NCBI GenBank assembly: GCA_943359485.1
Contig: CALRHR010000001.1
Location: 51,141 to 115,140, forward strand
Reading direction: 5' to 3'
Length of the DNA: 64,000 bases
Source of the DNA: Candidatus Nomurabacteria bacterium
Lineage (GTDB): Bacteria; Patescibacteriota; Minisyncoccia; Phycocordibacterales; UBA9973
Of this stretch, positions 1 to 64,000 are shown piece after piece. Numbering within the stretch: position 1 is the first letter of the stretch; every line of letters begins with the position of its first letter. Under the pieces are notes generated by a model. That model saw nothing but the letters and a program-made list of their open reading frames with translations, did not search any database and had not been told where the DNA came from. The translations under genes and the position numbers were made by a program.

Positions 1-1276
1 TATCAATAACAAAAGCACTGTGCACAAAGTCCCCGAGGGGAAATCTTACGGACCAGTAGAAGTGAGTTTGAGGAAAAGTAAACTTTTTGTAAACCTGTCG
101 AGTCAGATAAATGCTTGGTCAAGTCATGGAGATTCAGTAAAAAAAGCACCGACTGGTTTCAAAATTATTGCGACTTCTAAGGGTGGCAAAGTAATCGAAG
201 CGATGGAAAATACCAAAGAAAAACTTTACGCGGTGCAGTTCCATCCGGAAGTCGAGCAGACAGAAGATGAAAATATTATTTTAAATAATTTTGTAAAGAA
301 AATTTGCGCTTGTAAACAAGACTATTTTAAAAAAGATGCAATAAAAACCATTTGTAAAGAGATAGGCGAGAATACAAAAAATATTTTAGGTGATAAAGGC
401 GTAGCCATCATAGGAGTTTCCGGTGGAGTGGATTCTACGACACTTGCGGCGATACTGACGCCAGTACTAGGTAAACAATTGAAGGCATTCTTGGTAGACA
501 CTGGTGGAATGCGGAAGGGTGAAATAGAAAAAGTTAAAAGTATTGCAAAGAAAGCAAAAATAAATCTGGAAGTGATAAGTAAATACAAAAACAAATTTAT
601 CGAAAATGTGGGAAAAAGCATAAATGCGGAAGAAAAAAGAAAAAATTTTCGTGAGGTTTATGGGGAAGTTTTTAAAGAAGTGGCAAAATTTTACGGAGCG
701 ACGCACATGATCCAAGGCACTCTTGCCACTGATTTGATAGAGTCAGGATCTACGGGAAAATCTGCATTGATCAAAACTCATCACAATGTGGATTTGAAAT
801 TGGGACTCAAAGAAATAATGCCGTTCGCTGACTTTTTTAAATTTGAAGTGCGTGATATAGCGCGGTCATTTGGTTTAGGAGAATTAGTTTCAGGGCGTCA
901 GCCATTTCCTGGACCAGGATTGTATTTACGGGTAGTGGGGGTACCGGTAACCACAGAATTACTGGAGATTGTGCGTGAAGCCGATGACGAAGTAAGAAAA
1001 ATTTTAGAAAAACATAATTTATATAATAAAATTTCACAAACGATAGTAGCTCTTCTCGGCACGAAGACTGTTGGTGTTAAAGGCGACGGGCGAGTTTACG
1101 GATATTCTTTGGTGGTTCGCACAGTAGAGACGGCAGATTTTATGACAGTTAAAGGTTTTTATTTGCCACCTATTGTCTGCGAGGAAATCACCAATACTTT
1201 AGTCAAACATCCAAAAATTGTCCGTGTTCTTTACGACTGGACGACCAAACCCCCAGCCACGACAGAATTTGAATAA
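1..1276 (+). CDS. guaA: GMP synthase (glutamine-hydrolysing), 5'-truncated by window edge
   Basis: The frame is open from base 2, so the start lies off-window. The end of the GATase domain (YAVQFHPE) is followed by the ATP-PPase P-loop SGGVDSTT and a conserved C-terminal domain ending TTEFE. Confidence 0.9.
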   Translation, partial: INNKSTVHKVPEGKSYGPVEVSLRKSKLFVNLSSQINAWSSHGDSVKKAPTGFKIIATSKGGKVIEAMENTKEKLYAVQFHPEVEQTEDENIILNNFVKKICACKQDYFKKDAIKTICKEIGENTKNILGDKGVAIIGVSGGVDSTTLAAILTPVLGKQLKAFLVDTGGMRKGEIEKVKSIAKKAKINLEVISKYKNKFIENVGKSINAEEKRKNFREVYGEVFKEVAKFYGATHMIQGTLATDLIESGSTGKSALIKTHHNVDLKLGLKEIMPFADFFKFEVRDIARSFGLGELVSGRQPFPGPGLYLRVVGVPVTTELLEIVREADDEVRKILEKHNLYNKISQTIVALLGTKTVGVKGDGRVYGYSLVVRTVETADFMTVKGFYLPPIVCEEITNTLVKHPKIVRVLYDWTTKPPATTEFE

Positions 1277-1322
1277 GGTGGTATAATACATTTATGATTA
1301 AGAATATTATTTTATAAATTTT

Positions 1323-2018
1323 ATGGAGAAAAAATCTTTTCAAGAAAATCCTGACAATCACTTTGACACTGAAATGCGTTTGAGGGCATTAGAGGGTGCT
1401 GAAGCAAGCCATAGTGCAAAAATGGCTGATGAAGACCGTTTGGGCGTACCAAGCTACGATGAAAGTATGGTTTCAGATTGGATTAGAAACAGGATAGATA
1501 TACCAAAGGATATGATAGGGGGGAAAGGTGTATTTAAAGTTGAAACAAGTGCACAACCAGAAGGGGATTATGAAAGAGATTTAAAAATACTTCAAGCTCT
1601 TACAAAAGATCAGCTAGACAAACTTTTAGCCACAGTAGAAAATGAAAGCAAGAAAGACAAAGGGCTTTTTTCTAAAGGCGATTTACTAAATGGATATGCA
1701 ATTGATCCTGAAACCTTACAATCTTTACAAACTAGGGACCACCATGGGACGGCGAAAGATCTTGCGCTAAGCATATTGTATAGTATGGATGATGAAAAAA
1801 TTACTGAAAATACAGAAAATTATTTAATGAGAAGAATCATAGCGGGCATGGTTTTTTTTAAGGTGCCTGGTTTTAGAACTCCCATAATAAAATTTAACCC
1901 ATTCGTTTCAGTAAAAACAAACGATAAAGTACCTGAAGACAATGTTAAAAAAATTTCAAACCACCTAAAGCGAGAAAGAAAATTATTGCCCATTACTTCA
2001 GATTTTCAAGTACTTTAG
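1323..2018 (+). CDS. hypothetical protein
   Basis: A 231-aa ORF in an intergenic-free slot. I recognise no motif. Confidence 0.5.
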   Translation: MEKKSFQENPDNHFDTEMRLRALEGAEASHSAKMADEDRLGVPSYDESMVSDWIRNRIDIPKDMIGGKGVFKVETSAQPEGDYERDLKILQALTKDQLDKLLATVENESKKDKGLFSKGDLLNGYAIDPETLQSLQTRDHHGTAKDLALSILYSMDDEKITENTENYLMRRIIAGMVFFKVPGFRTPIIKFNPFVSVKTNDKVPEDNVKKISNHLKRERKLLPITSDFQVL

Positions 2019-2033
2019 GATGTTTTTCTTCCT

Positions 2034-2064
2034 ATCTCTAATTCGCGCGAATAGACGAATAGAT
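2034..2064. promoter_or_regulatory. putative ArsR operator, copy 1 (contains perfect palindrome ATTCGCGCGAAT)
   Basis: ATCTCTAATTCGCGCGAATAGACGAATAGAT lies upstream of the arsR-like gene. A near-identical copy sits at 2372-2402. Confidence 0.5.
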
Positions 2065-3081: not shown

Positions 3082-3113
3082 CTTACTTCACTAACGGCCG
3101 TCAGTGTGGTAAG
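3082..3113. promoter_or_regulatory. palindromic hairpin/operator overlapping the -10 of the PaaX-like gene
   Basis: CTTACTTCACTAACGGCCGTCAGTGTGGTAAG is centred on ACGGCCGT. It overlaps TAAGAT (3110-3115), which lies 6 nt before the ATG at 3122. Confidence 0.55.
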
Positions 3114-3121
3114 ATAATCAC

Positions 3122-3697
3122 ATGAGGGGACAAATACTTTTAAAGGCTCTGGAAGTGCTCACAGATTGCGCATTGACTCAAGTTGATTTTATTGAGGCAG
3201 TGCTTGCGAGTGGTTACGGGGCGGGTTTAGGGAAACTTGATTATGAATTTAGAAAAAGGCGAAGTGTAAGAGAGCGGGCAAATCTCAGAGAAGAGTATAA
3301 AACAGAACGCCGAAGGAGATTACAAAATTTTTTATACCAGATGAAACATGACGGATTGCTGGATGCTACTAAAGATAATAAATTGACCGTTTCTATAAAA
3401 GGAAAACAAAAAATAAAGGAACTAAAAAATAAATTACCTGGGCGTTACTACCTTAAAACAAAGACAACACAGATCACCATCATTAGTTTTGATATACCAG
3501 AGAAATTAAGGAGAAAGCGAAACTGGTTACGGGAAGTGATTAGGAATCTTGGGTTTAAAATGATACATCAGAGTGTTTGGATGGGGAAAAACAAAATCCC
3601 TGCAGAATTCATAGAGGATCTTGAGAACTTAAGAATTTTGGAATATGTTGAGATTCTGGAAGCTACTAAGAGCGGAAGTTTGAAGAAATTGGTATAA
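3122..3697 (+). CDS. PaaX-like regulator with Cas2-fold C-terminal domain (paralogue 1)
   Basis: ITIISFDIPEKLRRKRNWLREVIRNLGFKMIHQSVWMG matches the PaaX_C/Cas2-like beta-alpha motif. A paralogue lies at 32676-33221. Confidence 0.6.
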   Translation: MRGQILLKALEVLTDCALTQVDFIEAVLASGYGAGLGKLDYEFRKRRSVRERANLREEYKTERRRRLQNFLYQMKHDGLLDATKDNKLTVSIKGKQKIKELKNKLPGRYYLKTKTTQITIISFDIPEKLRRKRNWLREVIRNLGFKMIHQSVWMGKNKIPAEFIEDLENLRILEYVEILEATKSGSLKKLV

Positions 3698-3966: not shown

Positions 3967-4413
3967 CTATTCCTTTGCCTTGGGTGGTCTCTCTAGCTCT
4001 GCAATAGCTTGATCTAAAAAATCATTTGCTTTTTTTATCTCTTCTGCCGTAATTCTATTTTCCCCTGTCTTTCTATCTTCTCCTGTACGTAATCCTTCTT
4101 CAAATACTTTAAAATTTTCAAAATCAACTAGCAAACTTGCACTTAAATCTATCCTTGATTCTATCGCATGTAAAAAATATCTAACTATCTTCAGAAAAAA
4201 ACTTTTTCTGCATTTATATATAGCAAATTCTGGATTTGTTTTTGGAGTTAATAAGTATTCTGGTATTTCATCAATAAAATCATTACGAAAAATACGAAAT
4301 ATTTCTAAATATCGTTCTTTTGGACTTTCTATATTTTTTGTAGCAAGAAATTTTTGATTTAGCGCTCGTGTTTTAGACGTACCCTCATATGCAGTTGTTT
4401 GTCGAGCTTCCAT
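3967..4413 (-). CDS. hypothetical protein
   Basis: A 148-aa ORF downstream of nrdB. No motif recognised. Confidence 0.45.
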   Translation of the reverse strand: MEARQTTAYEGTSKTRALNQKFLATKNIESPKERYLEIFRIFRNDFIDEIPEYLLTPKTNPEFAIYKCRKSFFLKIVRYFLHAIESRIDLSASLLVDFENFKVFEEGLRTGEDRKTGENRITAEEIKKANDFLDQAIAELERPPKAKE

Positions 4414-4471
4414 TTTTTTATTTTAATACATCCTTAAATGAATATTTTTATAGGAATTTAATTTACTTCTA

Positions 4472-5491: not shown

Positions 5492-5497
5492 AAAAAT

Positions 5498-5582
5498 TAG
5501 TTTCTAGTTGCTAGGTTCTAGGTTCTAGCAGTTTATTTATTAATCTTTTCTAGTCCCTAGAAGCTAGTCCCTAACACCTAAC
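5498..5582. repeat. TAGG-heptad palindromic element (nrdA-nrdB spacer)
   Basis: The left arm is TTAGTTTCTAGTTGCTAGGTTCTAGGTTCTAGCA and the right arm is TCTAGTCCCTAGAAGCTAGTCCCTAACACCTAA. Together they form an imperfect inverted repeat. Confidence 0.55.
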
Positions 5583-8141
5583 TCATTGGCAACTCTCGCA
5601 CAATAACGCATCCTGCGGGTCTTCAGGCAAGTGTATACGCATTGGTTCTGTGTTTTCTTTTTTGATGTTCTCTGATGCTTCAGGGAGAGATGTTGGTGTT
5701 TCTATATTTTCAATTATTGGGGTTGCTTGTATTGTTTTATCGCGTAATACTGAGAAGCCTTTTTTACCCAAAGCAGTCCCTTTGTTGACTGTCGTTGTGG
5801 ATTGCTCGGCGCTGTGGCGTGGTTTCATGTGGAGATAGTAAGTGGTCTTTAGTCCTTTATCCCACGCGCTCGTATAAACATTCATGATTTCATCGATGTC
5901 GCGAATTTCTAGATACATGTTGCGAGAAATTCCCATATCTACCCATTTTTGTGCACGCGCGGCGACTTCAATGTAGGCATAAGGGGAAACAGAAAAAGAA
6001 GTTTTGTAGATTCTTTTAATATGATCTGGAATTTTCTCAATACTCTCGATGTCTCCGTGATTCTCGAGTATTTGTTCGCGTGTATTTTCCCACAAGTTTT
6101 CTTTTTGCAGAGCTTCCATCATATTTGGATTTACCTCAAGATACTTGCCGGAAATTTTATTTCGGGAAAACATCTGGGTGAACCTCGGGTCGATTCCCGG
6201 AGAAGTCCCTGCCACTAGTCCAATGTTGGCATTCGGCGCGATGGCTAGGAGTGTGGCGTTCCGCATACCTCTTTTTACTTTGGCACGCAGAGTATCCCAG
6301 TCTAAAAGCGGAAGCAATTTTGCTGATTCTTTTTTCACAGTTAATTCGCGTTCGCGATCCACTTCGAGTACTGCTAGAGTGTCTATCGGTACTTGTCCTT
6401 TTGACCAGCCCGAACCCTTAAAATTTTTATAACTTCCTCGTTCTTCTGCTAAATTTGCGGATTCATCTATGGACATGTAAGAGATAAATTCAAAAACTTG
6501 GTCCGCAAAATCTGCAGCCCCTGTGTCTTCATAAGAATAGCCAAGTTGTTCGATCGAATCAGCGAAGCCCATTAGTCCCAAGCCGACGGCGCGGTTTTCG
6601 GAATCTGCGCGAATTGCTTCCGGAATTGGAAGTTTATTAATGTCTACTAAGTTATCAAGCTGGCGAGTGGCTAGACGCACGGATTCTTCTAACCGGTGCC
6701 AGTCAATCTGTCCGTTTACAATATGCCGTGGAAGATTTATTGAAATTAAATTACAAACAGCAATGTTGTCTCCATCTGTCGGTAAAGTAACTTCGGTGCA
6801 AAGGTTGGAACAATGAATAGTGCCAGTGTTGTTATTGAGCGCGCGCATATTTATAGTATCTTTCCAAGTAAGCCACGGATGGGAAGTCGTTTCAAGCGAA
6901 ATTAGGATATTCTTGTATTGCTGGCGAGCTGGCATTACACTGAACATCTTCATTTTTCCCTGTTTTGCCAAAGCTACATATTCATTATATCTCTTAGAAA
7001 ATTCTTTACCCACAAGCTCGTTTAAGTCTTTAACTTCATTGGGGTCGAACAGATACCATTCGTCACTGTTTAAAACACGCTTCATAAACTCATCCGAAAT
7101 AAATACTGCAGTGTTGGCAGTACGAGTTCTCCTGTAGTCGTCTCCGTTGTTTTGTTTTAAATCTAAAAAATCTTGAAAATTTAAATGCCAATTTTCCATA
7201 TAAAAACACAACGCGCCCTTTTTTTTGCCACCTCGTTGGACTGCGCGCACAGCGGAATCAATGATGTGCATGAAAGGAACCGGTCCAGAAGAAATGGTAT
7301 TGTTGGATTTTAGAACTGATCCCTCGGCGCGGAGTTTGGTTACCGCAAGTCCGATACCACCGGTCGCTTTAGATAAAAGCAAAACATCTGAAACAGTTTT
7401 TCCGATATGTTCCATGTTGTCGTGAATTTCCATTAGGAAACAATTGGAAAGTTTTGGATTCGGAGTGCCGGCACCGATGTTGGAACTTCCAGCCGAGAGG
7501 TACTCCAGTTTAGACATCTTGTCGTAAAATTTCTTAGCCCACCCTGTAGCGTCTTTTTCATTCAGCGACATTCCCATAGCGACGCGCATCCAGAAATATT
7601 GTGGCGTTTCGAGTGGAGATTGTTTTTCATTCTTCATCAAGTAGCGATTCTGCATTGTGGAGAGTCCAGAATATTTATACAGTTCATCGTTTTCTATTTT
7701 CAAGTGCGAAGCGAGCACTTCTAGATCAAAAATTGTTACCATTCTTTTATCCAAAAGTCCTTTTTCAACTGCATTTAAGATGTAATTTTTAAAATGAGCA
7801 CTGTGAAGTTTGGCAAATTCTTCTTTTGATATGTTTTTTGACTCGTCGTGATCGTAATCCCCAATGACTTTCTTGTAAATGTCCTTCAAAAGTAGGCGAG
7901 TAGCTATTTTGTCGAAATCTCCGCTGTATTGAGTGTTCTGTAGGGCGGCGTTTATGGTCGCCGCGTCCATTTCTTCGGTAGTAATGCCGTCATATAAGGT
8001 GAGTTGTGTTTCTGATGCTATTTGGATAACTTTACTGATTGGGTCACTCAATCCATAACACGTCCTTTCGATTGATTTGTTGATTCGGTCGGCATTGAAG
8101 GGAACTTTTGTGCCGTCTCTTTTAGTAATTGTGAGTGTCAT
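5583..8141 (-). CDS. nrdA: ribonucleotide reductase class Ia alpha subunit with N-terminal ATP-cone
   Basis: An 852-aa ORF with an ATP-cone (KRDGTKVPFNADRINKSIE), active-site NLCTE and a C-terminal CESCQ tail. TATAAT lies 8 nt upstream of the ATG. Confidence 0.92.
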   Translation of the reverse strand: MTLTITKRDGTKVPFNADRINKSIERTCYGLSDPISKVIQIASETQLTLYDGITTEEMDAATINAALQNTQYSGDFDKIATRLLLKDIYKKVIGDYDHDESKNISKEEFAKLHSAHFKNYILNAVEKGLLDKRMVTIFDLEVLASHLKIENDELYKYSGLSTMQNRYLMKNEKQSPLETPQYFWMRVAMGMSLNEKDATGWAKKFYDKMSKLEYLSAGSSNIGAGTPNPKLSNCFLMEIHDNMEHIGKTVSDVLLLSKATGGIGLAVTKLRAEGSVLKSNNTISSGPVPFMHIIDSAVRAVQRGGKKKGALCFYMENWHLNFQDFLDLKQNNGDDYRRTRTANTAVFISDEFMKRVLNSDEWYLFDPNEVKDLNELVGKEFSKRYNEYVALAKQGKMKMFSVMPARQQYKNILISLETTSHPWLTWKDTINMRALNNNTGTIHCSNLCTEVTLPTDGDNIAVCNLISINLPRHIVNGQIDWHRLEESVRLATRQLDNLVDINKLPIPEAIRADSENRAVGLGLMGFADSIEQLGYSYEDTGAADFADQVFEFISYMSIDESANLAEERGSYKNFKGSGWSKGQVPIDTLAVLEVDRERELTVKKESAKLLPLLDWDTLRAKVKRGMRNATLLAIAPNANIGLVAGTSPGIDPRFTQMFSRNKISGKYLEVNPNMMEALQKENLWENTREQILENHGDIESIEKIPDHIKRIYKTSFSVSPYAYIEVAARAQKWVDMGISRNMYLEIRDIDEIMNVYTSAWDKGLKTTYYLHMKPRHSAEQSTTTVNKGTALGKKGFSVLRDKTIQATPIIENIETPTSLPEASENIKKENTEPMRIHLPEDPQDALLCESCQ

Positions 8142-8273
8142 AGGATAGTATTATAATCTTTCCGCAAGATACAAAGCAAGTTGATATCTTTAAAATTATC
8201 ACAACAAAAAATAATCGTCACCTCGTCAATACGAGGGCTAGAAAATCCTTTAAAATTTTGGTAAAATGACCTT

Positions 8274-8741
8274 ATGTTTAGAAAAAACAAACAAGAGAGG
8301 ATTATGGTCTTTGGAACTTTCGATGGATTACACCCAGGACACCTTAATTTTTTCAAACAAGCGAGAAAATTATCCAAAACTCCCTTTTTGATCGTTTCGG
8401 TGGCGCGTGACCGCAATGTTTTTCGGATAAAAAAACAATTTCCAATTCTTCCCGAGAAGAACAGAGTAATTTTAGTTGAAAAATTAATTAAAAAAAATTT
8501 AGTAAACAAAGTTATACTCTCCGGAATAAAAAACCATATTCCGCATATTATAAAAGAGCGCCCTGATATAATTGCGCTTGGTTATGACCAAAAAGCTTAT
8601 ACTAAAAATCTTCAAAAAGATTTGAAAAATAAAGGCATCTTGATAAAAATAGTTCGTTTGAAGTCCTACAAAGAAAAAATCTACAAAAATAGTTTGCTCC
8701 GACCACTTCGCCCGAAAATAATCACCACCCCCTTCGCCTGA
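8274..8741 (+). CDS. cytidylyltransferase-like nucleotidyltransferase (FAD synthetase / FMN adenylyltransferase-like)
   Basis: FGTFDGLHPGHLNFF is the (H/T)xGH nucleotidyltransferase motif. TGgTAAAAT (8262-8267) lies 6 nt before the ATG. Confidence 0.6.
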   Translation: MFRKNKQERIMVFGTFDGLHPGHLNFFKQARKLSKTPFLIVSVARDRNVFRIKKQFPILPEKNRVILVEKLIKKNLVNKVILSGIKNHIPHIIKERPDIIALGYDQKAYTKNLQKDLKNKGILIKIVRLKSYKEKIYKNSLLRPLRPKIITTPFA

Positions 8742-9377: not shown

Positions 9378-11186
9378 TTAAACAAGTTTGGCAGGCGCGG
9401 CGCCCTTGGTGGATATTTCTTCCAATAATTTTTTTAATAATTCTTCTTGTGACACATTCGACTTGCTAGTCTCAGTGCCATTCTCGCCTTCGCTCGTCGG
9501 CATTTGCCCTCCATCTCTAGATTCTAAAGTTAGTTTTCCACTTTCTATTTCTTTGTCTCCAATGACTACCCAATAAGGGATTTTATTGTTTTTTGCGTCG
9601 CGGACTTTTTTACCGAGATTTTCGTCTTCATTTGCTAGTTCTACTCGAATATTGTTTTCTTTTAATAACTCAAAAATATTTTTTGCATATTCATTATGAT
9701 TTTCTCGCACGGGTATGATTTTGATTTGCACCGGAGAGAGCCAAAGGGGGAAGTTCCCAGAGTAGTGTTCAATAAGTATTCCCATAAATCTTTCTGGAGA
9801 GCCTACAATTGCTCTGTGTATCATGACTGGAGTTTTTTCCTTGCCATCAGCATCGGTATAAGTTAGTTTAAATCTTTGAGGCATTATGAAATCAAGTTGT
9901 ATTGTAGAAATTTGCCACTCTCTTCCCAGAGAGTCTTTTGTAATTATATCCATTTTAGGTCCGTAAATTGCGGCTTCTCCAACACCTATTTCATATTTGA
10001 TCTTGTTTTCTTTTAAAATATTTTCAAGAATTTCTTGAGATCTTTCCCAGACTTCAGGACTACCTAGATATTTTTCTGGTTTTTCAGGATCCCAGAGAGA
10101 GAGTCTTATTTTGTAATTCATTTTGTAAGTCGTGAGAGCTTTCTTAACTACTCCAAGAATATTCTCAAACTCACTTTTTATTTGATCTTCTCTGCAAAAT
10201 GCGTGACCATCATCTTGGCAAAAGCATCTGAGTCTGGTTAATCCACTAAGTTCTCCTGGTCGTTCATCTCTATAAAGATTTGCAAAATCTGCATACCGGA
10301 TGGGTAGGTCGCGATAACTTCTCGGACGAGAAGCATATATTTGGGTGTGTTGTGGGCAGTTCATTGGTTTCAGAAAAAAGTCTTCTTCACTGTATTGTGA
10401 ACGAACAGTAAGCATGTCTTCTTTATATTTTTCATAATGACCAGAAATTTTAAATAATTCTGCTTTATTAAAATTTGGAGTATGTACTTCACCAAAACCA
10501 AGTTCAGCATTAAGTTCTCTACAGAAGTTTATTATGGAGTTACGAATAAAAGCTCCTTTTGGTGTGAACATTGGCATACCGCTTCCGACTAAGTCAGAAA
10601 ATACAAATAAGTCTAATTCTTTCCCTAATTTCTTATGATCCCTTTTTTTAGCTTCTTCTCTTTGGTCTATATATTTTTCCAATTCTTCTTTTGTTTCAAA
10701 TGCTAAACCATAAATACGGGTAAGCATTTTGTTTTTTTCATCTCCGCGCCAGTAGGCGCCGGCGACACGGTCGAGTTTGAAAGCATCAATGGGAAGATCT
10801 TTGTTTGGATGTTCTAAATGTCCTCCTTTGCATAAATCAACTAAAGTTCCAGATGTATAAAAAGTTAATTTTTTCCCCTCGGAGGCAAATTCCTCAAGCA
10901 GTTCAGTTTTGTATTCATTCCAGGCAAATTCCGCTCTAGCTTCTTCTAGTGTTACTTCGCGGCCGGTAAATGTATCCCAAGTCTTTATAATTTCCCGCAT
11001 TTTCTTTTCTATTTTAGGAAAATCTTCGACAGAAACTGCCTTTGGTAAATCAAAGTCTTGATAAAAACCATCATCAATAGCTGGACCAATGGCATTCTTG
11101 GCTCCTGGGTAGAGTTCTTTTATGGCTGTTACCAAAAGGTGTGCCAAGGTGTGTCTTATTTTGTAGGCATTAGTTACTTTTTCCAT
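9378..11186 (-). CDS. thrS: threonine--tRNA ligase
   Basis: An editing-domain remnant (HTLAHLL) and class II motifs (RDERPGELSGLTRLRCFCQDDGHAF) are present. The start is chosen at the MEKV codon, with TATTGT 6 nt upstream. Confidence 0.9.
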   Translation of the reverse strand: MEKVTNAYKIRHTLAHLLVTAIKELYPGAKNAIGPAIDDGFYQDFDLPKAVSVEDFPKIEKKMREIIKTWDTFTGREVTLEEARAEFAWNEYKTELLEEFASEGKKLTFYTSGTLVDLCKGGHLEHPNKDLPIDAFKLDRVAGAYWRGDEKNKMLTRIYGLAFETKEELEKYIDQREEAKKRDHKKLGKELDLFVFSDLVGSGMPMFTPKGAFIRNSIINFCRELNAELGFGEVHTPNFNKAELFKISGHYEKYKEDMLTVRSQYSEEDFFLKPMNCPQHTQIYASRPRSYRDLPIRYADFANLYRDERPGELSGLTRLRCFCQDDGHAFCREDQIKSEFENILGVVKKALTTYKMNYKIRLSLWDPEKPEKYLGSPEVWERSQEILENILKENKIKYEIGVGEAAIYGPKMDIITKDSLGREWQISTIQLDFIMPQRFKLTYTDADGKEKTPVMIHRAIVGSPERFMGILIEHYSGNFPLWLSPVQIKIIPVRENHNEYAKNIFELLKENNIRVELANEDENLGKKVRDAKNNKIPYWVVIGDKEIESGKLTLESRDGGQMPTSEGENGTETSKSNVSQEELLKKLLEEISTKGAAPAKLV

Positions 11187-11278
11187 ACTTCTACAATAGC
11201 ACATTTTTAATTTTTACAAAACATTTCGTTTGCTTTTAACCTTGAATATGCTAATATGTATTCATTATGGTAGTAAGA

Positions 11279-11491: not shown

Positions 11492-11493
11492 CG

Positions 11494-52488: not shown

Positions 52489-52624
52489 TAGAGAATTCAT
52501 CTCAAGAGAATAAATTCAAATTAGAGACATAAAAAGGGCGACTTCGCAAAAGCGAAGTCGCCCTTTTAGGTTCTGGAGTCAGTTTACTTTGCACAGCATA
52601 GATCTTTTGTGGTATACTGCAACT

Positions 52625-52855: not shown

Positions 52856-53090
52856 ATTAAAGCGACTTTCTGGCAAAGAAGTCATAACTTTTTGTGAACA
52901 ACACAATTTTAGTATCAGTAGACAGAAAGGAAGCCATATTAATTTGGTACGAATTGTTTCAGAGAAAAAACAAGTGGTGACCGTGCCAAATCATAAAGAA
53001 ATAGACAGAGGAACATTGCATAATATTTTCAAGAAACTGTCTTCATTCATTCCTGAAGAAGATTTAAGAAAATTTTTCTTTACTGACTAG
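52848..53090 (+). CDS. hicA: HicA mRNA-interferase toxin
   Basis: KLKRLSGKEVITFCEQHNFSISRQKGSHINL is the YcfA/HicA signature. It overlaps hicB by 8 nt. Confidence 0.75.
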   Translation: MPKLKRLSGKEVITFCEQHNFSISRQKGSHINLVRIVSEKKQVVTVPNHKEIDRGTLHNIFKKLSSFIPEEDLRKFFFTD

Positions 53091-54253: not shown

Positions 54254-54545
54254 TTCATTTCTTCCTTAACTCCGTCCCCTTGACTGGGCAACATGGAGTT
54301 GGAGCAGACTGATCAGAGTACTACAACCGCTTGCGCGTTTGTCTTACTTTGAATAGTCTGCCCGCTAGGAAGCCGGATTTTTTCTCTCCTCTCCTTACCC
54401 CCTCCGCTTTCAGCACCTCCCCCTAAATAGGGGGAGGCCGGGTAGGGGTACAAAGGGGTGAGGGTTCAGCTACATGGCGGGCAAACCATTCATTTTGCTC
54501 GAAATTCTACTTACTTCTTATTTAATTTTCGAAGGTCAGCTTTAC
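54254..54545 (-). promoter_or_regulatory. ~290-nt structured 5' leader of cassette 1
   Basis: A 13-bp long-range stem (54351-54363 with 54479-54491) encloses a GC-rich variable domain. A GCAA-tetraloop hairpin lies at 54328-54337. Confidence 0.55.
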
Positions 54546-54551
54546 CTATGT

Positions 54552-54580
54552 ATTGTATCACACTTATGACAAAAAGTCAA
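54552..54580 (-). promoter_or_regulatory. promoter of cassette 1 (TTGACT-N17-TACAAT on minus strand)
   Basis: The -35 lies at 54575-54580 and the -10 at 54552-54557. The sequence is identical to cassette 2. Confidence 0.7.
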
Positions 54581-54626
54581 GCCCTTTGGGCTGAATTTGT
54601 CCTTATTTTGTAAGGTTAAAATGATA

Positions 54627-54658
54627 AAAGGGCCGCCTCAGTGAAGAGACAGCCCTTT
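54627..54658 (-). terminator. terminator of cassette 2
   Basis: On the minus strand, AAAGGGCTG...CGGCCCTTT is followed by TATCATTTT. Confidence 0.55.
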
Positions 54659-54783
54659 GTTTTGCGCTGGGCCTGTGCGCGATTTGGGCCCTGGGTTGAC
54701 GAGTCCCCGTTGCGTCACTCTGGTTTGTTCCCTCCAGACGGGAGACCTCTATTTTGTAAGCGCTGGTCAGGTGCTTTGTCTTT

Positions 54784-55281
54784 TTAGGGGCAGTACCGGC
54801 TTGCCCCCTCTTCGAGGGGGTTGAACGGCCGTTTCTTCCCGTCCTCCCCGACGATCTCGTCGGGGCAGCCGAATTTCTTGTGTTTGGGGGTCCCTACCCC
54901 CAGAATTTTGTCGACGGCCTGGTCGAGCGCTTGCCCGACAGAGACCGCCGACTTGCCGTCGCCGAGTCCAAGACTCCCGAGGACCTTGTTGATCCCCTCG
55001 AGGGCCGCGTTCCCGGCGGTCTTTCCGATCTCAAGCGCGCGCCGATTGCGCAGCGCGCGGGCCTTGGCTAGAATCGTCGGAGTGCTGTCCTCCGGATGCG
55101 CCTCGAGCCAGGCCAGCGTCTTGCTGGCCCCGTCATAGAGCGCCTTCGCTCCCTCGATTGTTGTAGCGGCTGGAGCCTTCTCCAGAGCCGCCACTTTCTG
55201 CGCCATTTTTTCTTGTCGGCTGGCGCCACAACCGACCGCCGTGAGTGCCACGGCGAGCACGAACGTCAAGAGGAAATTCAT
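54784..55281 (-). CDS. GC-rich putative lipoprotein B2 (helical, unknown function)
   Basis: The signal peptide MNFLLTFVLAVALTAVGC is lipobox-like. GGAGGGGGAGGGAAGAA lies immediately upstream. The start overlaps the upstream stop as ATGA. Confidence 0.65.
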   Translation of the reverse strand: MNFLLTFVLAVALTAVGCGASRQEKMAQKVAALEKAPAATTIEGAKALYDGASKTLAWLEAHPEDSTPTILAKARALRNRRALEIGKTAGNAALEGINKVLGSLGLGDGKSAVSVGQALDQAVDKILGVGTPKHKKFGCPDEIVGEDGKKRPFNPLEEGASRYCP

Positions 55282-56153
55282 TTCTTCCCTCCCCCTCCAA
55301 ACATTCCCTTGACTATCCACTCCAGGGGCTGGGTGACTACCTCACCCAGGGAGTGTTTGGCGGCCAACTCCCCAATGCCGCCAATCTTCCATTTCCTAAT
55401 ACCCCCGAGGACCTCGTCCCAACGGGAGCAGACGATGGCTCCGACGAGCGCTATCATCTGCCACCCGAGAACTCCCCACCCCATAGCCTTCTCCCCGAAG
55501 AGAAACGAGTTAATGGTTGCCCAAAAACCGAATTCCCCCAGGGGATCCTCGAGCGGAGTCGTTGCCACAGCCCAGAACTGGGCTTTGGCGATTTCGATGG
55601 GGTTTAGGGTTGCTGGCGCCGCGGTAGGGTCCACCCACCACAAAAACACCACCCCTAACACCATCCACACCGTCGTGCGAAGTACCCAGTTGTTGTCGCC
55701 GAGCCGGATCAGGACACTCCGCCCGATCTCCGCAGCCCCACGGCCGTGAGTCTCGATTCCCGCGAAGATGGCGAAGACCGCGAGCGTGGTCACGAGGGCA
55801 ACTAGCGTAAAGGCTGGGTAGCCGAACCAAAAACCGAAGACGATCCAGTAGAGTACTATGAACAGCGCCCCCCAGAATCCCACGGTCTTCGGCTTGATCA
55901 CTACCTCGCCTTCGTCGCAAGCGCCATCGCCTACGACTTCGGCCCTAATGATGTGTCGTCCCGGTTTGAGGTCTTTGAGCTCGAAGCTCGCGACCCCGCC
56001 TTCCGTCTTTACGGCGCGCTTGCGCTTGCCGTCGACCGAGAAACGAACCTGGACTTCTTTCTCGCCACCTTTTTTCCCGGCGGTGGCCGGCCGGTCTGAC
56101 ACGACGGCTTCCGCCACCGTGTCTTTCTCTACTAAACTCAAAGTCAAAATCAT
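55278..56153 (-). CDS. GC-rich membrane protein A2 (N-terminal beta-rich soluble domain plus multiple TM helices)
   Basis: The start is chosen at MILTLS, with TAGGAG 7 nt upstream. The hydrophobic core is FWGALFIVLYWIVFGFWFGYPAFTLVALVTTLAVFAIFAGI. Confidence 0.6.
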   Translation of the reverse strand: MILTLSLVEKDTVAEAVVSDRPATAGKKGGEKEVQVRFSVDGKRKRAVKTEGGVASFELKDLKPGRHIIRAEVVGDGACDEGEVVIKPKTVGFWGALFIVLYWIVFGFWFGYPAFTLVALVTTLAVFAIFAGIETHGRGAAEIGRSVLIRLGDNNWVLRTTVWMVLGVVFLWWVDPTAAPATLNPIEIAKAQFWAVATTPLEDPLGEFGFWATINSFLFGEKAMGWGVLGWQMIALVGAIVCSRWDEVLGGIRKWKIGGIGELAAKHSLGEVVTQPLEWIVKGMFGGGGKK

Positions 56154-56462
56154 TATCTTTCTCCTAATCAAATTTTTTCTCGAGCACACGATTCAGAATA
56201 CTACAACCACTTGCGTGTTTGTCGTTTCCTGAATAGTCTGCCCATCAATGAGCCGATGCATTTCCTCTCCCTGCGAAGGGGGAGATTTGAGAGGGGGTCT
56301 CAAGAATTACCACCCCTAGCCCCTCCTTAATCAAGGAGGGGAGGAAACATAAAATACTCAGCTTCTTAACGGGCAAACCATTCATTTCCCCGCCAGTCTG
56401 GCCGGGGTAAATTGCTCGAAATTCTACTTACTTCTTATTTAATTTTCGAGTAACAGCTTTAC
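56154..56462 (-). promoter_or_regulatory. ~310-nt structured 5' leader of cassette 2
   Basis: It has the same architecture as 54254-54545. The stem joins 56231-56243 with 56371-56383, and the GCAA hairpin lies at 56208-56217. There is an extra 24-nt hairpin insert. Confidence 0.55.
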
Positions 56463-56468
56463 CTATGT

Positions 56469-56497
56469 ATTGTATCACACTTATGACAAAAAGTCAA
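56469..56497 (-). promoter_or_regulatory. promoter of cassette 2 (TTGACT-N17-TACAAT on minus strand)
   Basis: The -35 lies at 56492-56497 and the -10 at 56469-56474. Confidence 0.7.
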
Positions 56498-56626
56498 GCC
56501 TAAATGCTCCAAAACAGCCTTATTTTACAGGCTATTTTGGGGCATTATTGACATTAGTCTTGTATTGTGTTTTTAAAAAAGTCTATAGTTCTTGTCTTAA
56601 TCTAATTCAAATGATATTATATAAAT

Positions 56627-56857
56627 ATGAACACCGTAACCTTACCCAAAAATCAATACATGCAAATTTTAAGCACTCAAGACAAATTTCAAGTGGATTT
56701 GTCTCGCTTGGAGAGAATGGTTTCTTATATGGTTCAAGATGAAGTTAGTCCGGTGTATATGACCAGACTTTCTAAGATAGAGAAAGGTCTTTCCGCTGGC
56801 AAAGGTGTTAAGTTTAAAAATAAAAGTGAACTCAAAAAATTCTTTCGTTCTTTATAG
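56627..56857 (+). CDS. putative antitoxin (partner of the RelE/ParE-like toxin)
   Basis: A 76-aa ORF lying 2 nt upstream of the toxin gene. TATTAT (56615-56620) lies 6 nt before the ATG. Confidence 0.5.
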   Translation: MNTVTLPKNQYMQILSTQDKFQVDLSRLERMVSYMVQDEVSPVYMTRLSKIEKGLSAGKGVKFKNKSELKKFFRSL

Positions 56858-56859
56858 TT

Positions 56860-57144
56860 ATGAATAATTTAGAGAAGATGAATTTTATTTTTTCTCTGGA
56901 ATTTAAAAAAATTCTAGAGAAAATGGCAAAGAAAGATAAATTAGGATTAAAAAAAATAGAAGACCAAGTATATAAAATAATCTCTAATCCACTCATAGGT
57001 AAACCTCTTCGTAATGTTATGAAAAGTTATCGACGAGTTCATATAGGGCATTTTGTTTTGATTTATAAAATAGAGAACGGAGAGATAACATTTGCAGATT
57101 ATGACCATCATGATCGCATTTATAAAAAATATTCTCTAACCTAA
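56860..57144 (+). CDS. RelE/ParE-family toxin
   Basis: YRRVHIGHFVLIYKIENGEITFADYDHHDRIY. Confidence 0.65.
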   Translation: MNNLEKMNFIFSLEFKKILEKMAKKDKLGLKKIEDQVYKIISNPLIGKPLRNVMKSYRRVHIGHFVLIYKIENGEITFADYDHHDRIYKKYSLT

Positions 57145-58235: not shown

Positions 58236-58745
58236 TTATGCATGCTTTAGGGGTGTGTCGTGATAGTTTTGCTCTCCGCGGAATACCCTCCTAACTAAGA
58301 TGACTATCAAGAGAATTAATATCGCAAGAAGAATCCATTGAACAAGCCCAGAAGGCATGAAACTATTTGAACCATAGATGACATTGGCAGCAAGTTCTTT
58401 GACATCTTCCGCAGTCTTGACTGGTTCGTCGGCAGTAGAAGTTGTGGCAACTTTGTTCGTAGCAGGCGCTGCTTTTCTCACGGTAGTCGTAGTGGTAGTT
58501 GCCTGTGGAGCATAAGCGTTAGTATTTCCTGAGTAAATAGTAGGCGCGTCGGAATACTCAGTATTAGTATTTACTCCCGCAGAATTGTCTCGTACAGTAG
58601 CCCACTTAGTGCTGTTGTAAGGGGTAACATACCCGGCTCTGTCGGCACTTGCTTCTGTGGGTACAAACATGACCCCTAGAGCCAAAATAGTGAATGCTTG
58701 TAAGCCATAAAATGCTATATTTAATTTTTGATTATATTTATTCAT
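58236..58745 (-). CDS. hypothetical secreted protein with C-terminal TM anchor
   Basis: It has a signal-like N-terminus, a poly-Thr tract and the C-terminal helix WILLAILILLIVILV. Confidence 0.5.
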   Translation of the reverse strand: MNKYNQKLNIAFYGLQAFTILALGVMFVPTEASADRAGYVTPYNSTKWATVRDNSAGVNTNTEYSDAPTIYSGNTNAYAPQATTTTTTVRKAAPATNKVATTSTADEPVKTAEDVKELAANVIYGSNSFMPSGLVQWILLAILILLIVILVRRVFRGEQNYHDTPLKHA

Positions 58746-58783
58746 ACTTATAGTATAGCATATATAAAAACAAATGTCAAGTT

Positions 58784-60036: not shown

Positions 60037-60109
60037 TGCGTCCAGAAGGGATCGAACCTTCGACCTTATCCTTAAGAGGGATCTGCTCTACCAGCTGAGC
60101 TATGGACGC
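60037..60109 (-). tRNA. tRNA-Lys (anticodon CUU)
   Basis: The reverse complement reads GCGTCCATAGCTCAGCTGGTAGAGC...CTCTTAA...GAAGGTTCGATCCCTTCTGGACGCA. Confidence 0.9.
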
Positions 60110-60251
60110 AAATATATTCAATTTTAAAACAAGACTTTACCATTAATAATCTTTCGACCTACCAAAACAGCTATGGACGCAAATATATTTAATTTTTAAA
60201 CAAGACTTTACCACCAACAATCTAACGATTTACCAAAACAGCTAAGGGCGC
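60098..60251. repeat. 71-bp tandem repeat duplicating the tRNA-Lys upstream region plus the first 12 nt of a tRNA
   Basis: AGCTATGGACGC occurs at 60098 and 60169, and AGCTAAGGGCGC at 60240. The intervening ~59 nt are about 85% identical by eye. Confidence 0.75.
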
Positions 60252-60292
60252 ATGTTTAATTTTCTAAAATAATTACAAATTTATAATTATTC

Positions 60293-60377: not shown

Positions 60378-60570
60378 AGTTGTCTAAGTCTAACTGAAAA
60401 AAGTATTTTTTTCAATCCCTATTTACAGATTACATATCAGGTTATATAATATTCAGATGAGTATGGAAACTTCCGATCCCCAACTATCATTAGGAAATTC
60501 TGAGCTCTTGGAAGACCTAAAGTCACTCGTTGCTAAAAGATTATAAAAAATGAGATAGTATATTATTTAT

Positions 60571-61089
60571 ATGTCGGAAAAACTATTCAAAAGTGTCCCT
60601 AGTGCAGTTATTGAGAGAACTGAAATGGGTATGGTGGGACAAGTAAGAGAACTCGTAAGATTGATTCTTTGGGATAAAGTTCTGCGCGATAAACTTGTAG
60701 ACAATCCAATTGGAAAAGAAGGTCTGGATGCACTCAAGAGGCTCGGCAAAAATTTTTCTATTGTTCTTGCGGATAGTGTCCCCGTCTTAGGATCCGTTGT
60801 TCATTGGAGTGCAGATGTCTTAAAATTATCAAAACATGATGCAACTCCGGATGTTTCCAAATTAACAGCATGGGGAGCAAATATAATTGATGTATTAACT
60901 CTTGATACTATTCCCTCATATTGGATTCAAGCAGCTCTTCAATTGAGAAAAGATCTACCTAAGCTTCAGGCATTATTGAAACTTATTCAGAAGATACGCA
61001 CAGAAGAGATGGAAGATTATGAGGAAAATCAATCTCAAGTTGATGGTGCAATAAGAGTTTTTGGCACCGAAGAAAGAGATGAAAAATAA
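60571..61089 (+). CDS. hypothetical protein
   Basis: A 172-aa ORF. TATATT (60559-60564) lies 6 nt before the ATG. Confidence 0.5.
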   Translation: MSEKLFKSVPSAVIERTEMGMVGQVRELVRLILWDKVLRDKLVDNPIGKEGLDALKRLGKNFSIVLADSVPVLGSVVHWSADVLKLSKHDATPDVSKLTAWGANIIDVLTLDTIPSYWIQAALQLRKDLPKLQALLKLIQKIRTEEMEDYEENQSQVDGAIRVFGTEERDEK

Positions 61090-61092
61090 AAT

Positions 61093-61341: not shown

Positions 61342-61413
61342 AGGCGTGGGTGGGAATCGAACCCACGCATGTCGGTTTTGCAGACCGAAGCGTTACCATT
61401 TCGCCACCACGCC
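61342..61413 (-). tRNA. tRNA-Cys (anticodon GCA)
   Basis: The reverse complement reads GGCGTGGTGGCGAAATGGTAACGC-T-TCGGT-CTGCAAA-ACCGA...GTGGGTTCGATTCCCACCCACGCCT. Confidence 0.88.
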
Positions 61414-62133
61414 TTTTAAATGAAAATCGATTATTTTTCTAATTTTCCTATCAACAACCTTTGGTCGTAATTCAAAGTAGTTATTGAATATTTTAAATTT
61501 TCGCATAAAAAATGAATTAATGCTAGTGCCTTTGTATATTAGTTTGAATATTTGTAGAGAATCTTTTGTGTTGTATATTGCTTGGAAAGATCTCTTACTT
61601 GAATAAATTTTACCTTCTTTAATCCCAATTTTTCTAAAAACATGATTCATTTTTTCAAGAAATATTTTACTACCACTAGTAAATATCACACGAACCCTTT
61701 TTATTATTAATTTTTGGGTTTTACCTTTGGTTTGTGCAAAGTGAACACATCCATCTCCATCAAAATATCCCCTCATAAAATGACCTAAGTATTTTTGTGG
61801 AACTTTTGGGAACTTTATAGTTAGAGATTTGTTTGGATATAGACCTAATCTAAAAAGGTCATTGTATATTTTATGACTACCTATTCTTAACGCAAAGCAA
61901 ACTTTTCCTCTGATAAAATTCGACCTTTTCTGGTTTGTTTTGTGTTCTGAACCCAACCATGTTTTTATTCTTTCTATGGAATCTTTATCTGTGCTAGCTA
62001 TTTGGATATATTTACCACGCATATAAGGTGAATCATCCAAACTTCCATCAGCATAAATATATCCCAAAACATAGGCCATATTCGGGGACCATTTTTCGAA
62101 GAATTTTTCATTAACTTTATATTTTATTCCCAC
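61393..62133 (-). CDS. LAGLIDADG-family homing endonuclease-like protein (double motif)
   Basis: Two motifs are present: LGYIYADGS and MRGYFDGDGC. The start is GTG with TATAAT 6 nt upstream. The last 21 nt overlap tRNA-Cys. Confidence 0.75.
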   Translation of the reverse strand: MGIKYKVNEKFFEKWSPNMAYVLGYIYADGSLDDSPYMRGKYIQIASTDKDSIERIKTWLGSEHKTNQKRSNFIRGKVCFALRIGSHKIYNDLFRLGLYPNKSLTIKFPKVPQKYLGHFMRGYFDGDGCVHFAQTKGKTQKLIIKRVRVIFTSGSKIFLEKMNHVFRKIGIKEGKIYSSKRSFQAIYNTKDSLQIFKLIYKGTSINSFFMRKFKIFNNYFELRPKVVDRKIRKIIDFHLKGVVAKW

Positions 62134-62173
62134 TTTTATATTATAAGTGGTAATTAATTATACTGCAACTTGA

Positions 62174-62494
62174 TTACTTTTCTCGTAGCAATTCGTCAAT
62201 TTTTTGGCGGTTTTTTTCACCCAGATCAATGGCAATGTCGACAAAGGGGATGGTCTTGACGGGCATGTTTTTTTTCAAGTATTCCCGCAGTTCTGGTCTT
62301 TTGCGTTTGGCAAATTCTAGCGCGGTTTTTTCTTTTGAATCTGGAAGTACTGTAATAAATATCGTTGCCCGTTTTAAGTCGGGGGAACAGGTGGCGGCTA
62401 TCACGGTAATAAGTGAAGTTTTATTGTTTTCTCTTCCCAAAAAAATTGCCGCTAATTCTTTTATTTGATTTGCAACTTTATTATTTCTCTCCAT
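62174..62494 (-). CDS. rbfA: ribosome-binding factor A
   Basis: RNNKVANQIKELAAIFL...ATIFITVLPD is an RbfA-like pattern. It lies downstream of infB, in conserved synteny. Confidence 0.8.
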   Translation of the reverse strand: MERNNKVANQIKELAAIFLGRENNKTSLITVIAATCSPDLKRATIFITVLPDSKEKTALEFAKRKRPELREYLKKNMPVKTIPFVDIAIDLGEKNRQKIDELLREK

Positions 62495-62521
62495 AATTTT
62501 AGATTAAGAATGTTTAAAAAA

Positions 62522-64000
62522 TTATTTCTGCGCCACACTAAATAATTCCACGACATCACCCGCTACGATTTCTATTTTAGATTCTACCATCATGCCAAAT
62601 TCCTTTCCCTCGGATACTTCGCTGGTTTTCATTTTACCTTGTTCCAAGTTTACGATTTTTCCACGACCGATTTCGAAATCTCGACGCATGATTTTAACCG
62701 TTCCATTTAGAACCATGGTTCCCTCGATTACTTTTCCGCCAACGATTTGGCGCTCGCGGGTTCGACTGAAAGCTCGGATGATCTTTGCTTTGCCAGTTGT
62801 TAACATGGTTTCGATCCTCGGCCGGCGGTTTTCCATTTCGACTTCCAGCCACTCGGTCAGTTTATAGATAATATTAAATAAGTTAATCCGGAGGCCTCTT
62901 TTTTGGGCAAGTTCTGTAGCATTTTTATCTATTTTGACATTGAAGCCAATAACGATGATGTTTCCACTGTCGGAAATATTTTTTATGTCTGATTCGCCGA
63001 TAGTTCCTACGCTCTTACTAATGATTTTAAATTCTGCTCCCTCGGTTTTTATCTTTGCTATTTCTTTTTCGATGGCTTCGAGAGTCCCGGAGACATCGGC
63101 TTTTAATATTATTGGAATTATTTTTTTTGTTGATTCTGTTTCGCGAGTAGAAAGGTCAGACCTTTTTGAATTCTCAAGGTCAGACCTTGGGGAATTATTT
63201 TTTATATATTCTTCGGCATCTTTTTTATTTTGAAAAGATTTAAAGATTGCTCCAACTCTCGGCATTTTGTCGAAGCCGACAATCCGTACCGGGGAAGACA
63301 TGGAGACAGAATCCATCATACTCCCTTTGAAATTTTCTATGATGCGCGTGGAGCAGATACAATCTTCTACCACAACCGTCATTCCTTTTTTCAAGGTTCC
63401 ATTTTTAACAATTAGCGTCGCCACGATTCCACGCTTAGAATCCAAATTTGCTTCAATGACGACTCCGGAGGCAGCTTCATCGATATTTCCAGTAAAGTTT
63501 TCCATCTCGGCCATAATTAAGATAAGTGACAGGAGGTTATCCACTCCTGTGCCTGTCTTTGCAGAAATTTCTACGCACGGGATCTTGCCACCATAATTTT
63601 CCAGATAAATTTCTTTTTCTACTAATTCTGTTTTTGTTTTTTCTACATTTGCGCCTGGCTTGTCTATCTTGTTGATTGCTACGATGCACACAGTGTTGCT
63701 TTCATTTATAGTTTTCCAGGCTTCCAATGTCTGTGGCTTGACGCCATCTTCTGCAGAAACTACCAATATTGCGATGTCGGCCACGGCTGCTCCGCGCTCG
63801 CGCATTTTCGAAAAAGCTTCATGGCCAGGTGTATCTAGAAAGGTGATTTTGCGACTAGCAAAATCATCCCGAGATTTTCGAGGGATAGCTCGATTCACTT
63901 CGTTCTCTCGGGATTTCGGTTCCTCTTGAGGAACCTCAACTTCATAGGCAGAAATATTTTGAGTTATGCCACCGATTTCACCTTCTGTCACATTTGTTTT
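62522..64000 (-). CDS. infB: translation initiation factor IF-2, N-terminus beyond window edge
   Basis: G-domain motifs are present ([24 protein letters not shown]), followed by C-terminal beta-barrel domains. Confidence 0.92.

Follow-up and report, generated by a model that had tools for sequence, protein, structure and literature searches.

Leaderless mRNAs are the default for first cistrons in archaeal and mammalian mitochondrial translation, where Shine-Dalgarno (SD) pairing is used little or not at all. Deinococcus keeps a normal anti-SD sequence and uses SD pairing for its other genes; the anti-SD-less or SD-poor Bacteroidota/Flavobacteriia and Mycoplasma initiate independently of SD on leadered mRNAs. 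In sequence, bacterial leaderless genes are conventionally recognized by a TANNNT box about 10 to 12 bases ahead of the start codon (Zheng 2011, PMC3160421; GeneMarkS-2 group C, PMC6028130), a signature that experiments have confirmed in Deinococcus deserti (PMC4007540) and mycobacteria (PMC4633059). Few taxa have lost the anti-SD, with 128 of ~20,600 on record (PMC6107228). About half of Parcubacteria have been reported to lack CCUCCU at the 16S rRNA 3′ end, a loss whose consequence was left open (Tsurumaki et al. 2022, PMC9297842). Here we analyzed a 64,000-nucleotide stretch, called the window throughout, from a genome of Candidatus Nomurabacteria bacterium (GCA_943359485.1, contig CALRHR010000001.1, positions 51,141 to 115,140), a member of the Patescibacteria or candidate phyla radiation (CPR). 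An earlier note on this DNA had claimed that a −10 promoter hexamer lies exactly 6 nucleotides ahead of many start codons and that most genes leading a transcription unit are leaderless. Our analysis of the sequence indicates that most transcription units of this Paceibacteria/Zambryskibacteria-like genome very probably give leaderless or nearly leaderless mRNAs.

The window resembles each of the described systems in part. TA-led genes of Deinococcus-Thermus likewise carry TANNNT ~6 to 7 bases ahead of AUG or GUG (PMC4007540, PMC3160421), and the leaderless share is 47 to 60% of D. deserti mRNAs and a predicted 46% of D. radiodurans genes, compared with ~63% of units and ~40% of genes in the window. 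However, the window differs from Deinococcus in having no anti-SD and no SD use, in its low GC content, and in its full TATAAT with extended TG; in high-GC groups, the three middle positions of TAnnnT are uninformative (Zheng et al., PMC3160421). Transcription starts in Deinococcus have been mapped experimentally to the start codon, whereas those in the window are predicted from sequence. In GeneMarkS-2 group C (Actinobacteria, Mycobacterium, Streptomyces; PMC6028130, PMC4633059), as in the window, a Pribnow box stands 6 to 8 bases from first-in-operon starts and is absent at internal genes. Internal and leadered genes of group C are modelled with an SD-type ribosome-binding site, but their counterparts in the window have none. 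The main text of PMC6028130 makes no mention of CPR organisms. The anti-SD-less Parcubacteria (PMC9297842) belong to the same lineage and show the same CCUCCU loss, but that study leaves the initiation mechanism open and mentions neither leaderless mRNAs nor promoter-to-start spacing. SD-poor Bacteroidota/Flavobacteriia and Mycoplasma (PMC6107228) share with the window the lack of usable SD pairing and the A/U-rich start regions; unlike the window, the Bacteroidota-dominated control loci analyzed here have no −10 box at the corresponding distance. Archaea (group D in PMC6028130) and mammalian mitochondria differ in promoter type, which in archaea is a TATA box at ~−26, and in their transcription and translation machinery. 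In the searchable literature, we found no paper on leaderless mRNAs in CPR, Patescibacteria, Parcubacteria, or Saccharibacteria. The leaderless mechanism is known, but that it should dominate in a CPR clade without an anti-SD appears not to have been described there.

The spacing between −10 hexamers and start codons was compared with chance expectation from dinucleotide-preserving shuffles (n = 100) of the window, which has a GC content of 39%. In what follows, Nx denotes x bases between hexamer and start codon. TATAAT-N6-ATG occurred at 8 sites versus 0.93 ± 1.1 expected, and the TG-extended form, TGNTANNNT-N6-ATG, at 14 sites versus 2.2 ± 1.4 expected; neither count was reached in any of the 100 shuffles. 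Open reading frames (ORFs) of at least 60 codons are opened by 12 of these 14 TGnTAnnnT-N6-ATG sites. At N7, the extended form was found 4 times against 2.2 expected, which alone is not significant. Distances from −10-like hexamers (five of six positions matched) to the next ATG formed a single peak at N6 (28 versus ~10 elsewhere), which persisted when the histogram was limited to ATGs opening at least 60 codons (15 versus ~3). Other in-frame spacings (N3, N12, N15, etc.) were not enriched. The spacing pattern is genuine and exceeds chance by a wide margin. Each of the 13 pairs of hexamer and start codon coordinates that the earlier note had listed matches the letters exactly, as does its TATAAT-N6-GTG at a LAGLIDADG gene (TATAAT at 62140-62145, GTG at 62133, minus strand). 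The motif-distance analysis by which its claim could be checked gives a nonrandom placement of TAnnnT relative to starts, peaking at N6 in the window and at N6 to N7 in pooled loci of CPR relatives.

In a curated set of 62 genes in ~41 transcription units, a TAnnnT box at N6 to N8 precedes 26 starts (18 at N6, 6 at N7, and 2 at N8), corresponding to 63% of units and ~40% of genes. Three further starts, those of rpmF (11267), the gene at 24186, and murC (38732), are nearly leaderless, with the box at N9 to N12. The claim that the box marks most unit leaders therefore agrees with the counts, at 26 of ~41 units or 29/41 with the N9-N12 sites included. Seven cases had gone unlisted before: 13278 and 29593 on the plus strand and 4413, 28803, 38682, 47642, and 58745 on the minus strand. 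The list of N7-N8 spacings given earlier stands for 25932, 27589, and 50075 (all N7) and for 43603 and nrdA (8141, minus strand; both N8), but its remaining member, 11279, is a wrong start. Most of the curated starts do not depend on the spacing itself. In 22 of the 26 cases, no alternative in-frame start lies upstream before the preceding stop, so these starts were not picked by a spacing rule. Pfam domains begin at residues 3 to 5 in SecA, NrdA, SMC, the 2-hydroxyacid dehydrogenase, and the beta-lactamase-fold protein, which excludes downstream starts for these five.

Comparison with relatives bears on three starts in particular; orthologues of most other leaderless-type genes were absent from the comparison loci. 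The closest relatives of the window's ThrRS are encoded in metagenome-assembled genomes (MAGs) of Candidatus Paceibacterota (74% identity) and Zambryskibacteria (68%). The N-terminus M-x8-RH(T/S)LAHLL is kept in ~40 CPR relatives and thereby supports the thrS start at 11186, which the earlier note had chosen against the ORF track. Many of these relatives carry TGnTAnnnT at N6 to N8, with spacer sequences that are unrelated. For rpmF, the protein MVVRMRHT... translated from 11267 can be aligned with 17 relatives from its very first residue; the start at 11279 proposed earlier is therefore wrong, although a weak TATGGT-N7 does precede it. The rpmF promoter is conserved among relatives as a −35 TTGCwT followed by TGn and a −10 box, with spacing of N6 to N10. 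From the N9 spacing at 11267, the rpmF mRNA probably has a leader of 1 to 3 bases. At smc, a −10 box at N6 to N7 is also present in two comparison loci (L003 and L005).

As a separate observation on these loci, the ThrRS encoded by L011, L040, L054, L064, L074, and L080 and by several "Saccharibacteria" third-party annotation MAGs is nearest to the Paceibacteria-type protein of the window. The Gammaproteobacteria and Saccharibacteria titles on these loci are probably taxonomic mislabels. The leaderless signature is also seen in L064 and in the short L011.

Taken together, the window's promoters suggest the following route of initiation. A sigma-70 extended −10 element (TGnTAnnnT), with a weak −35 (TTGnnn) 17 ± 1 bases upstream, places its hexamer at −12 to −7 from the A of the start codon. 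Under canonical promoter geometry, RNA polymerase would start 7 bases past the hexamer, that is, at the A of ATG for N6 and at this A or 1 to 3 bases ahead of it for N7 to N9. By analogy with known leaderless mRNAs, the ribosome and initiator tRNA would then bind the 5′-terminal AUG directly, without mRNA-rRNA pairing; SD pairing is impossible with a 16S rRNA ending in GGAAUAAUUCAAUU, and starts show no enrichment of SD-like motifs. Downstream cistrons have neither box nor SD and follow the previous gene after weakly structured, A/T-rich gaps of −17 to +38 bases; their translation presumably proceeds through coupling or re-initiation that needs no SD.

An unlikely alternative is that the boxes are real promoters whose transcripts are not strictly leaderless, either starting a few bases upstream or using a downstream initiation codon, such that short 5′ untranslated regions (UTRs) result. 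This would accommodate the six N7, two N8, and three N9-N12 sites, and also the spread of rpmF spacing from N6 to N10 among relatives. However, the sharp mode at N6 (18/26) equals the canonical distance from −10 to +1, and the start codons of thrS, rpmF, secA, nrdA, and smc are fixed by domain boundaries or conserved N-termini. Moreover, a UTR of 1 to 3 bases without an SD counts as leaderless under the usual cutoff of ≤5 bases.

We consider it very improbable that TAnnnT works at the mRNA level as a ribosome-binding element other than an SD, placed 6 bases from the start as an SD might be and pairing, for instance, with the altered 16S tail. The 6- to 8-base spacing does equal typical SD spacing, and the tail of the window's 16S rRNA is altered and A/U-rich. 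Against this, the motif behaves as a promoter in its sequence and in its distribution. In 25 sites aligned on the hexamer, whose second-position A and sixth-position T were used for selection and are not independent evidence, the unselected positions show T at −15 in 19/25, G at −14 in 17/25, and T at −35 in 18/25. The TG one base upstream of the hexamer, which the earlier note had remarked at several boxes, was found in 16/25 sites versus ~6% expected (binomial p = 3e-14). The −35 element is generally a weak TTG at 17 ± 1 bases upstream, with clear boxes at some sites (TTGACA at 58745; TTGCTT at 25932, 27589, and nrdA). The invariant bases of the box correspond to A-11 and T-7, which sigma-70 recognizes. 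Boxes at N6 to N8 precede 22/37 unit-leading genes but only 4/25 operon-internal genes (Fisher p = 7e-4). Duplex energies between upstream regions and the 16S 3′ tail were no better than those with shuffled tails, and where the tail varies in other organisms, the SD is not altered to match (PMC6107228). On these sequence features, the motif reads as a sigma-70 extended −10 promoter and not as a ribosome-binding site. Two other features were not discriminating: T at −1 before the ATG was frequent by eye in leaderless-type and other genes alike, and 5′ structure over the first 36 bases was similarly weak in the two classes (−1.45 versus −1.37 kcal/mol, with −3.2 in internal windows).

The 16S rRNA gene itself (22266-23911, plus strand; candidate promoter TTGACT-17-TATACT at 21879-21907, plus strand, by consensus match only) has no anti-SD. 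Its 3′ end at 23898-23911 is GGAAUAAUUCAAUU rather than GGAUCACCUCCUUA, where the consensus reads GGAUCACCUCCUUu (in bacterial rRNA, GGAUcACCUCCUUu), and CCUCC is absent. SD-like 4-mers near starts in the window number 0.07 per gene versus 0.03 in a control region, compared with 0.37 versus 0.09 in SD-using control genomes analyzed in the same way. Because the 16S rRNA lacks an anti-SD and SD-like motifs are not enriched, an SD-based leader mechanism is unavailable. A new SD/anti-SD pair involving the altered tail was ruled out as well, with no complementarity beyond that of shuffled tails. The few GGAGG motifs in the window, read by eye, are located in a GC-rich island.

Several features of the rRNA gene and of this island were noted in passing. 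The sequence replacing the anti-SD (23898-23930 in the window; also in loci L082-L201), GGAWUAAUUCMAAUUKGAA, can form a mini-hairpin of 4 to 5 bp, whose stems vary from sequence to sequence by apparently compensatory changes (UUCA/UGAA, UCCA/UGGA, UUCC/GGAA, and CUCA/UGAG). The hairpin can be formed by 61 of 84 unique clade 16S tails versus 31 ± 4 in shuffles, and it may be located in the mature 16S rRNA or in the trailer. The 16S gene also contains a 121-base insertion (~23437-23557) that falls in the loop of a hairpin at about model position 1158; near its 5′ end (~22340-22405), ~65 bases stand in place of the model's 14. The island (53249-56500) reaches 57.6% GC versus ~38% elsewhere and encodes three minus-strand genes without a Pfam match, with GGAGG-like motifs upstream that an anti-SD-less ribosome could not use. 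The upstream regions (~300 bases) at 54302-54583 and 56182-56500 are direct repeats of one another, and both carry a TTGACT-17-TACAAT promoter ~300 bases ahead of the ATG; there was no convincing Rfam match. The island may represent a recent acquisition or chimeric DNA.

Composition or ascertainment, with A/T-rich intergenic DNA and TAA/TAG hexamers ahead of the first ATG mimicking the signal, is scarcely credible as an explanation, and the controls by shuffling and by spacing already go most of the way to refuting it, for although the genome is 39% GC, TAAAAT, TAAGAT, and TAGTAT at N6 are in-frame stops, and spacing histograms have a period-3 background, the shuffles gave 0.93 and 2.2 against the 8 and 14 sites observed, TATAAT contains no in-frame stop, spacings such as N3, N12, and N15 were not enriched, the TG extension was ~10-fold enriched only at N6 to N7, and A/T-rich Bacteroidota loci had no peak.

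The same spacing recurs across the clade. In 46 pooled CPR loci (829 kb), we counted 71 hexamers at N6 and 63 at N7 versus a background of 26, and in the TG-extended subset 23 and 19 versus ~2. Non-CPR loci (468 kb, mostly Bacteroidota) had no N6/N7 peak. A metagenome scan with the helix-45 sequence of the window organism as query returned 120 contigs (667 kb), and none of their 120 16S genes carries CCTCC after helix 45. These contigs had 79 hexamers at N6 and 57 at N7 versus a background of 19 (P = 6e-25 and 1e-12, respectively), and 33 and 20 versus ~1.7 in the TG-extended subset. Because contigs without CCTCC carry the N6/N7 peak, anti-SD loss and the leaderless arrangement co-occur across the clade. 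No 16S genes were found in the thrS loci derived from the Genome Taxonomy Database (GTDB), and SD use per CPR locus showed no negative correlation with the leaderless signature (Spearman +0.36, noisy).

A number of observations count against a predominantly leaderless genome. The assignment of +1 to the A of ATG is a prediction from promoter geometry, and the N7-N12 sites may carry leaders of 1 to 6 bases. Roughly 12 units have no box (for example, 33313, 40242, 42172, and 59653), and leadered, SD-less initiation must therefore also exist. Among the four starts that were chosen by the spacing rule (2106, 11186, 50075, and 52625), independent support is available only for 11186; the other three are plausible. 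In its closest relatives, smc is operon-internal without a promoter, and the box at 13278 may be an internal promoter or a coincidence of chance. A generic −35/−10 scan was barely above shuffles (64, 64, and 61 sites versus 52, 58, and 39 expected); such a sigma-70 scan is uninformative in A/T-rich DNA, and spacing to start codons was therefore used. Finally, N6 hexamers starting with TAA or TAG are in-frame stops that slightly raise the background of in-frame "first ATGs," although the TATAAT and TG-extended counts are unaffected by this effect.

Beyond the window, we advance a broader proposal, to which we would give slightly less than even weight: that a large Paceibacteria clade has abandoned SD initiation. 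In this clade, the A/U-rich mini-hairpin tail would replace the anti-SD, leaderless mRNAs from extended −10 promoters would be the default for first cistrons, and internal cistrons would be translated by SD-free re-initiation, assisted in some operons by heptad-repeat hairpins that span the stop-to-start gap or are cleaved to give near-leaderless 5′ ends. If true, one lineage of bacteria would initiate translation much as archaea or mitochondria do. The arrangement in the window itself offers a proposed answer to the open question of how Parcubacteria without an anti-SD find start codons, with first cistrons read from a 5′-terminal AUG. For annotation, gene callers favoring SD motifs or the longest ORF will misplace starts in these MAGs, as at 2070/2106, 11204/11186, and 50054/50075. 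TGnTAnnnT-N6-ATG is a usable promoter model for CPR genetic tools, and a deep-branching, low-GC lineage with reduced genomes joins the debate on whether leaderless initiation is ancestral or has repeatedly re-evolved.

The individual sites are given here in the order of the window, each with the span from promoter motif to start codon; sites are on the plus strand unless stated otherwise. TGgTATAAT-N6-ATG (2091-2108) opens an ArsR-type helix-turn-helix gene (2106-2372), with an in-frame GTG upstream at 2070, and TGgTAAGAT-N6-ATG (3107-3124) a PaaX_M/Cas2-like gene (3122-3697) with no alternative start upstream. On the minus strand follow TAAAAT-N6-ATG without TG (4411-4428; gene 3967-4413) and TATAAT-N8-ATG (8139-8158) at nrdA (5583-8141), whose ATP-cone domain begins at residue 4. 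A cytidylyltransferase-like gene (8274-8741) has TGgTAAAAT-N6-ATG (8259-8276). The box of thrS (9378-11186, minus strand) is TGcTATTGT-N6-ATG (11184-11201), and that of the near-leaderless rpmF (bL32; 11267-11491) is TGcTAATAT-N9-ATG (11249-11269). At smc (13278-15413), TGgTAAGAT-N7-ATG (13262-13280) places the start 19 bases past the rnc stop, and TGgTAAAAT-N6-ATG (15771-15788) precedes a 2-hydroxyacid dehydrogenase gene (15786-16760) heading a four-gene operon that ends at enolase. Past the 16S gene, TGtTATAAT-N9-ATG (24168-24188) opens the near-leaderless gene 24186-24869, its box overlapping the 3′ arm of the post-16S hairpin, and TGaTATAAT-N6-ATG (24875-24892) a D-Ala-D-Ala ligase-like gene (24890-25810). 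TATAAT-N7-ATG with TTGCTT at the −35 position is found twice, at 25916-25934 (gene 25932-26273) and 27573-27591 (gene 27589-27855).

Farther along, TGtTATAAT-N6-ATG (28801-28818, minus strand) serves the gene 27883-28803, and TGcTAGTAT-N7-ATG (29577-29595) serves secA (29593-32121), with its SecA_DEAD domain from residue 5. A second PaaX_M-like gene (32676-33221) has TATAAT-N6-ATG (32661-32678), a radC-like gene (34087-34827) TGtTATAAT-N6-ATG (34072-34089), and a murD-like gene (36576-37904) TGcTAGTAT-N6-ATG (36561-36578). An Asp/Glu racemase gene (37897-38682, minus strand) is preceded by TGtTAAAAT-N6-ATG (38680-38697), and the murC-like gene (38732-40000) by TGgTATATT-N12-ATG (38711-38734), for which the predicted leader is ~5 bases. 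Next come TGcTATAAT-N8-ATG (43586-43605) at a metallo-beta-lactamase-fold gene (43603-44229), TTGTCA-16-TATACT-N7-ATG (47640-47658, minus strand) at an IS200-like Y1 transposase gene (47016-47642), and TATAAT-N6-ATG (47786-47803) at a methyltransferase gene (47801-48319). A type IV secretion pilin gene (50075-50482) has TGtTATAAT-N7-ATG (50059-50077) and an in-frame GTG upstream at 50054. TGgTATACT-N6-ATG (52610-52627) opens a small gene (52625-52855; in-frame TTGs upstream) followed by hicA (52848), and TGaTATTAT-N6-ATG (56612-56629) a 76-amino-acid gene (56627-56857) followed by a ParE toxin gene (56860). The full consensus promoter TTGACA-17-TGcTATACT-N6-ATG (58743-58760, minus strand) precedes the gene 58236-58745, TATATT-N6-ATG (60556-60573) the gene 60571-61089, and TATAAT-N6-GTG (62131-62148, minus strand) the LAGLIDADG endonuclease gene (61393-62133). 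The ATG at 56627 is a genuine case because it opens a 76-codon gene that is followed by the ParE toxin gene.

Two toxin-antitoxin-like pairs are thus headed by a small gene of leaderless type, namely an antitoxin-like gene with HicA (52625-53090) and the 76-amino-acid gene with ParE (56627-57144). One study describes the toxin-antitoxin transcripts of M. tuberculosis as predominantly leaderless (PMC8485053). Two mobile-type genes, the IS200-like Y1 transposase and the free-standing LAGLIDADG endonuclease (starting with GTG and adjoining tRNA-Cys), also stand behind leaderless-type promoters. Perfect TATAAT-N6-ATG sites open very short reading frames in two places. One, within 1279-1322, encodes MIKNIIL*, with the stop 5 bases ahead of the ATG at 1323; the other, within 60445-60546, opens a 29-codon ORF ending 24 bases ahead of the leaderless-type gene at 60571. 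These sites may be leaderless mini-ORFs feeding re-initiation or plain promoters with short leaders.

Segmented hairpins of one family, in which a loop separates the heptad repeats (YTAGGNN)3-4 and (NNCCTAR)3-4, were observed at 5492-5585 (minus strand) and, on the plus strand, at 11492-11565, 51625-51700, and 23460-23530, the last lying in the insertion in the 16S gene. Fold z-scores of the three intercistronic copies were −3.6, −5.0, and −4.0. Two of the hairpins, between nrdA and nrdB and between rpmF and the next gene, run from the upstream stop to a few bases before the next ATG; a third begins ~60 bases past the upstream stop and ends ~4 bases short of the ATG at 51704. These hairpins may be sites of RNase III-type processing or may help re-initiation; the window contains an rnc gene (12431-13258). 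The element TCTCTAATTCGCRCGAATAGRCGAATAG occurs at 2035-2066 and 2373-2401, ahead of the ArsR-type regulator gene (2106) and of the next gene (2408), and may be an operator or a terminator-like repeat. Two tandem repeats were also found, one of 64 bases × 2.0 (28994-29121) in the gene-poor stretch at 28.8 to 29.6 kb, and one of 71 bases × 2.2 (60098-60252) starting within the 3′ part of the tRNA-Lys gene.

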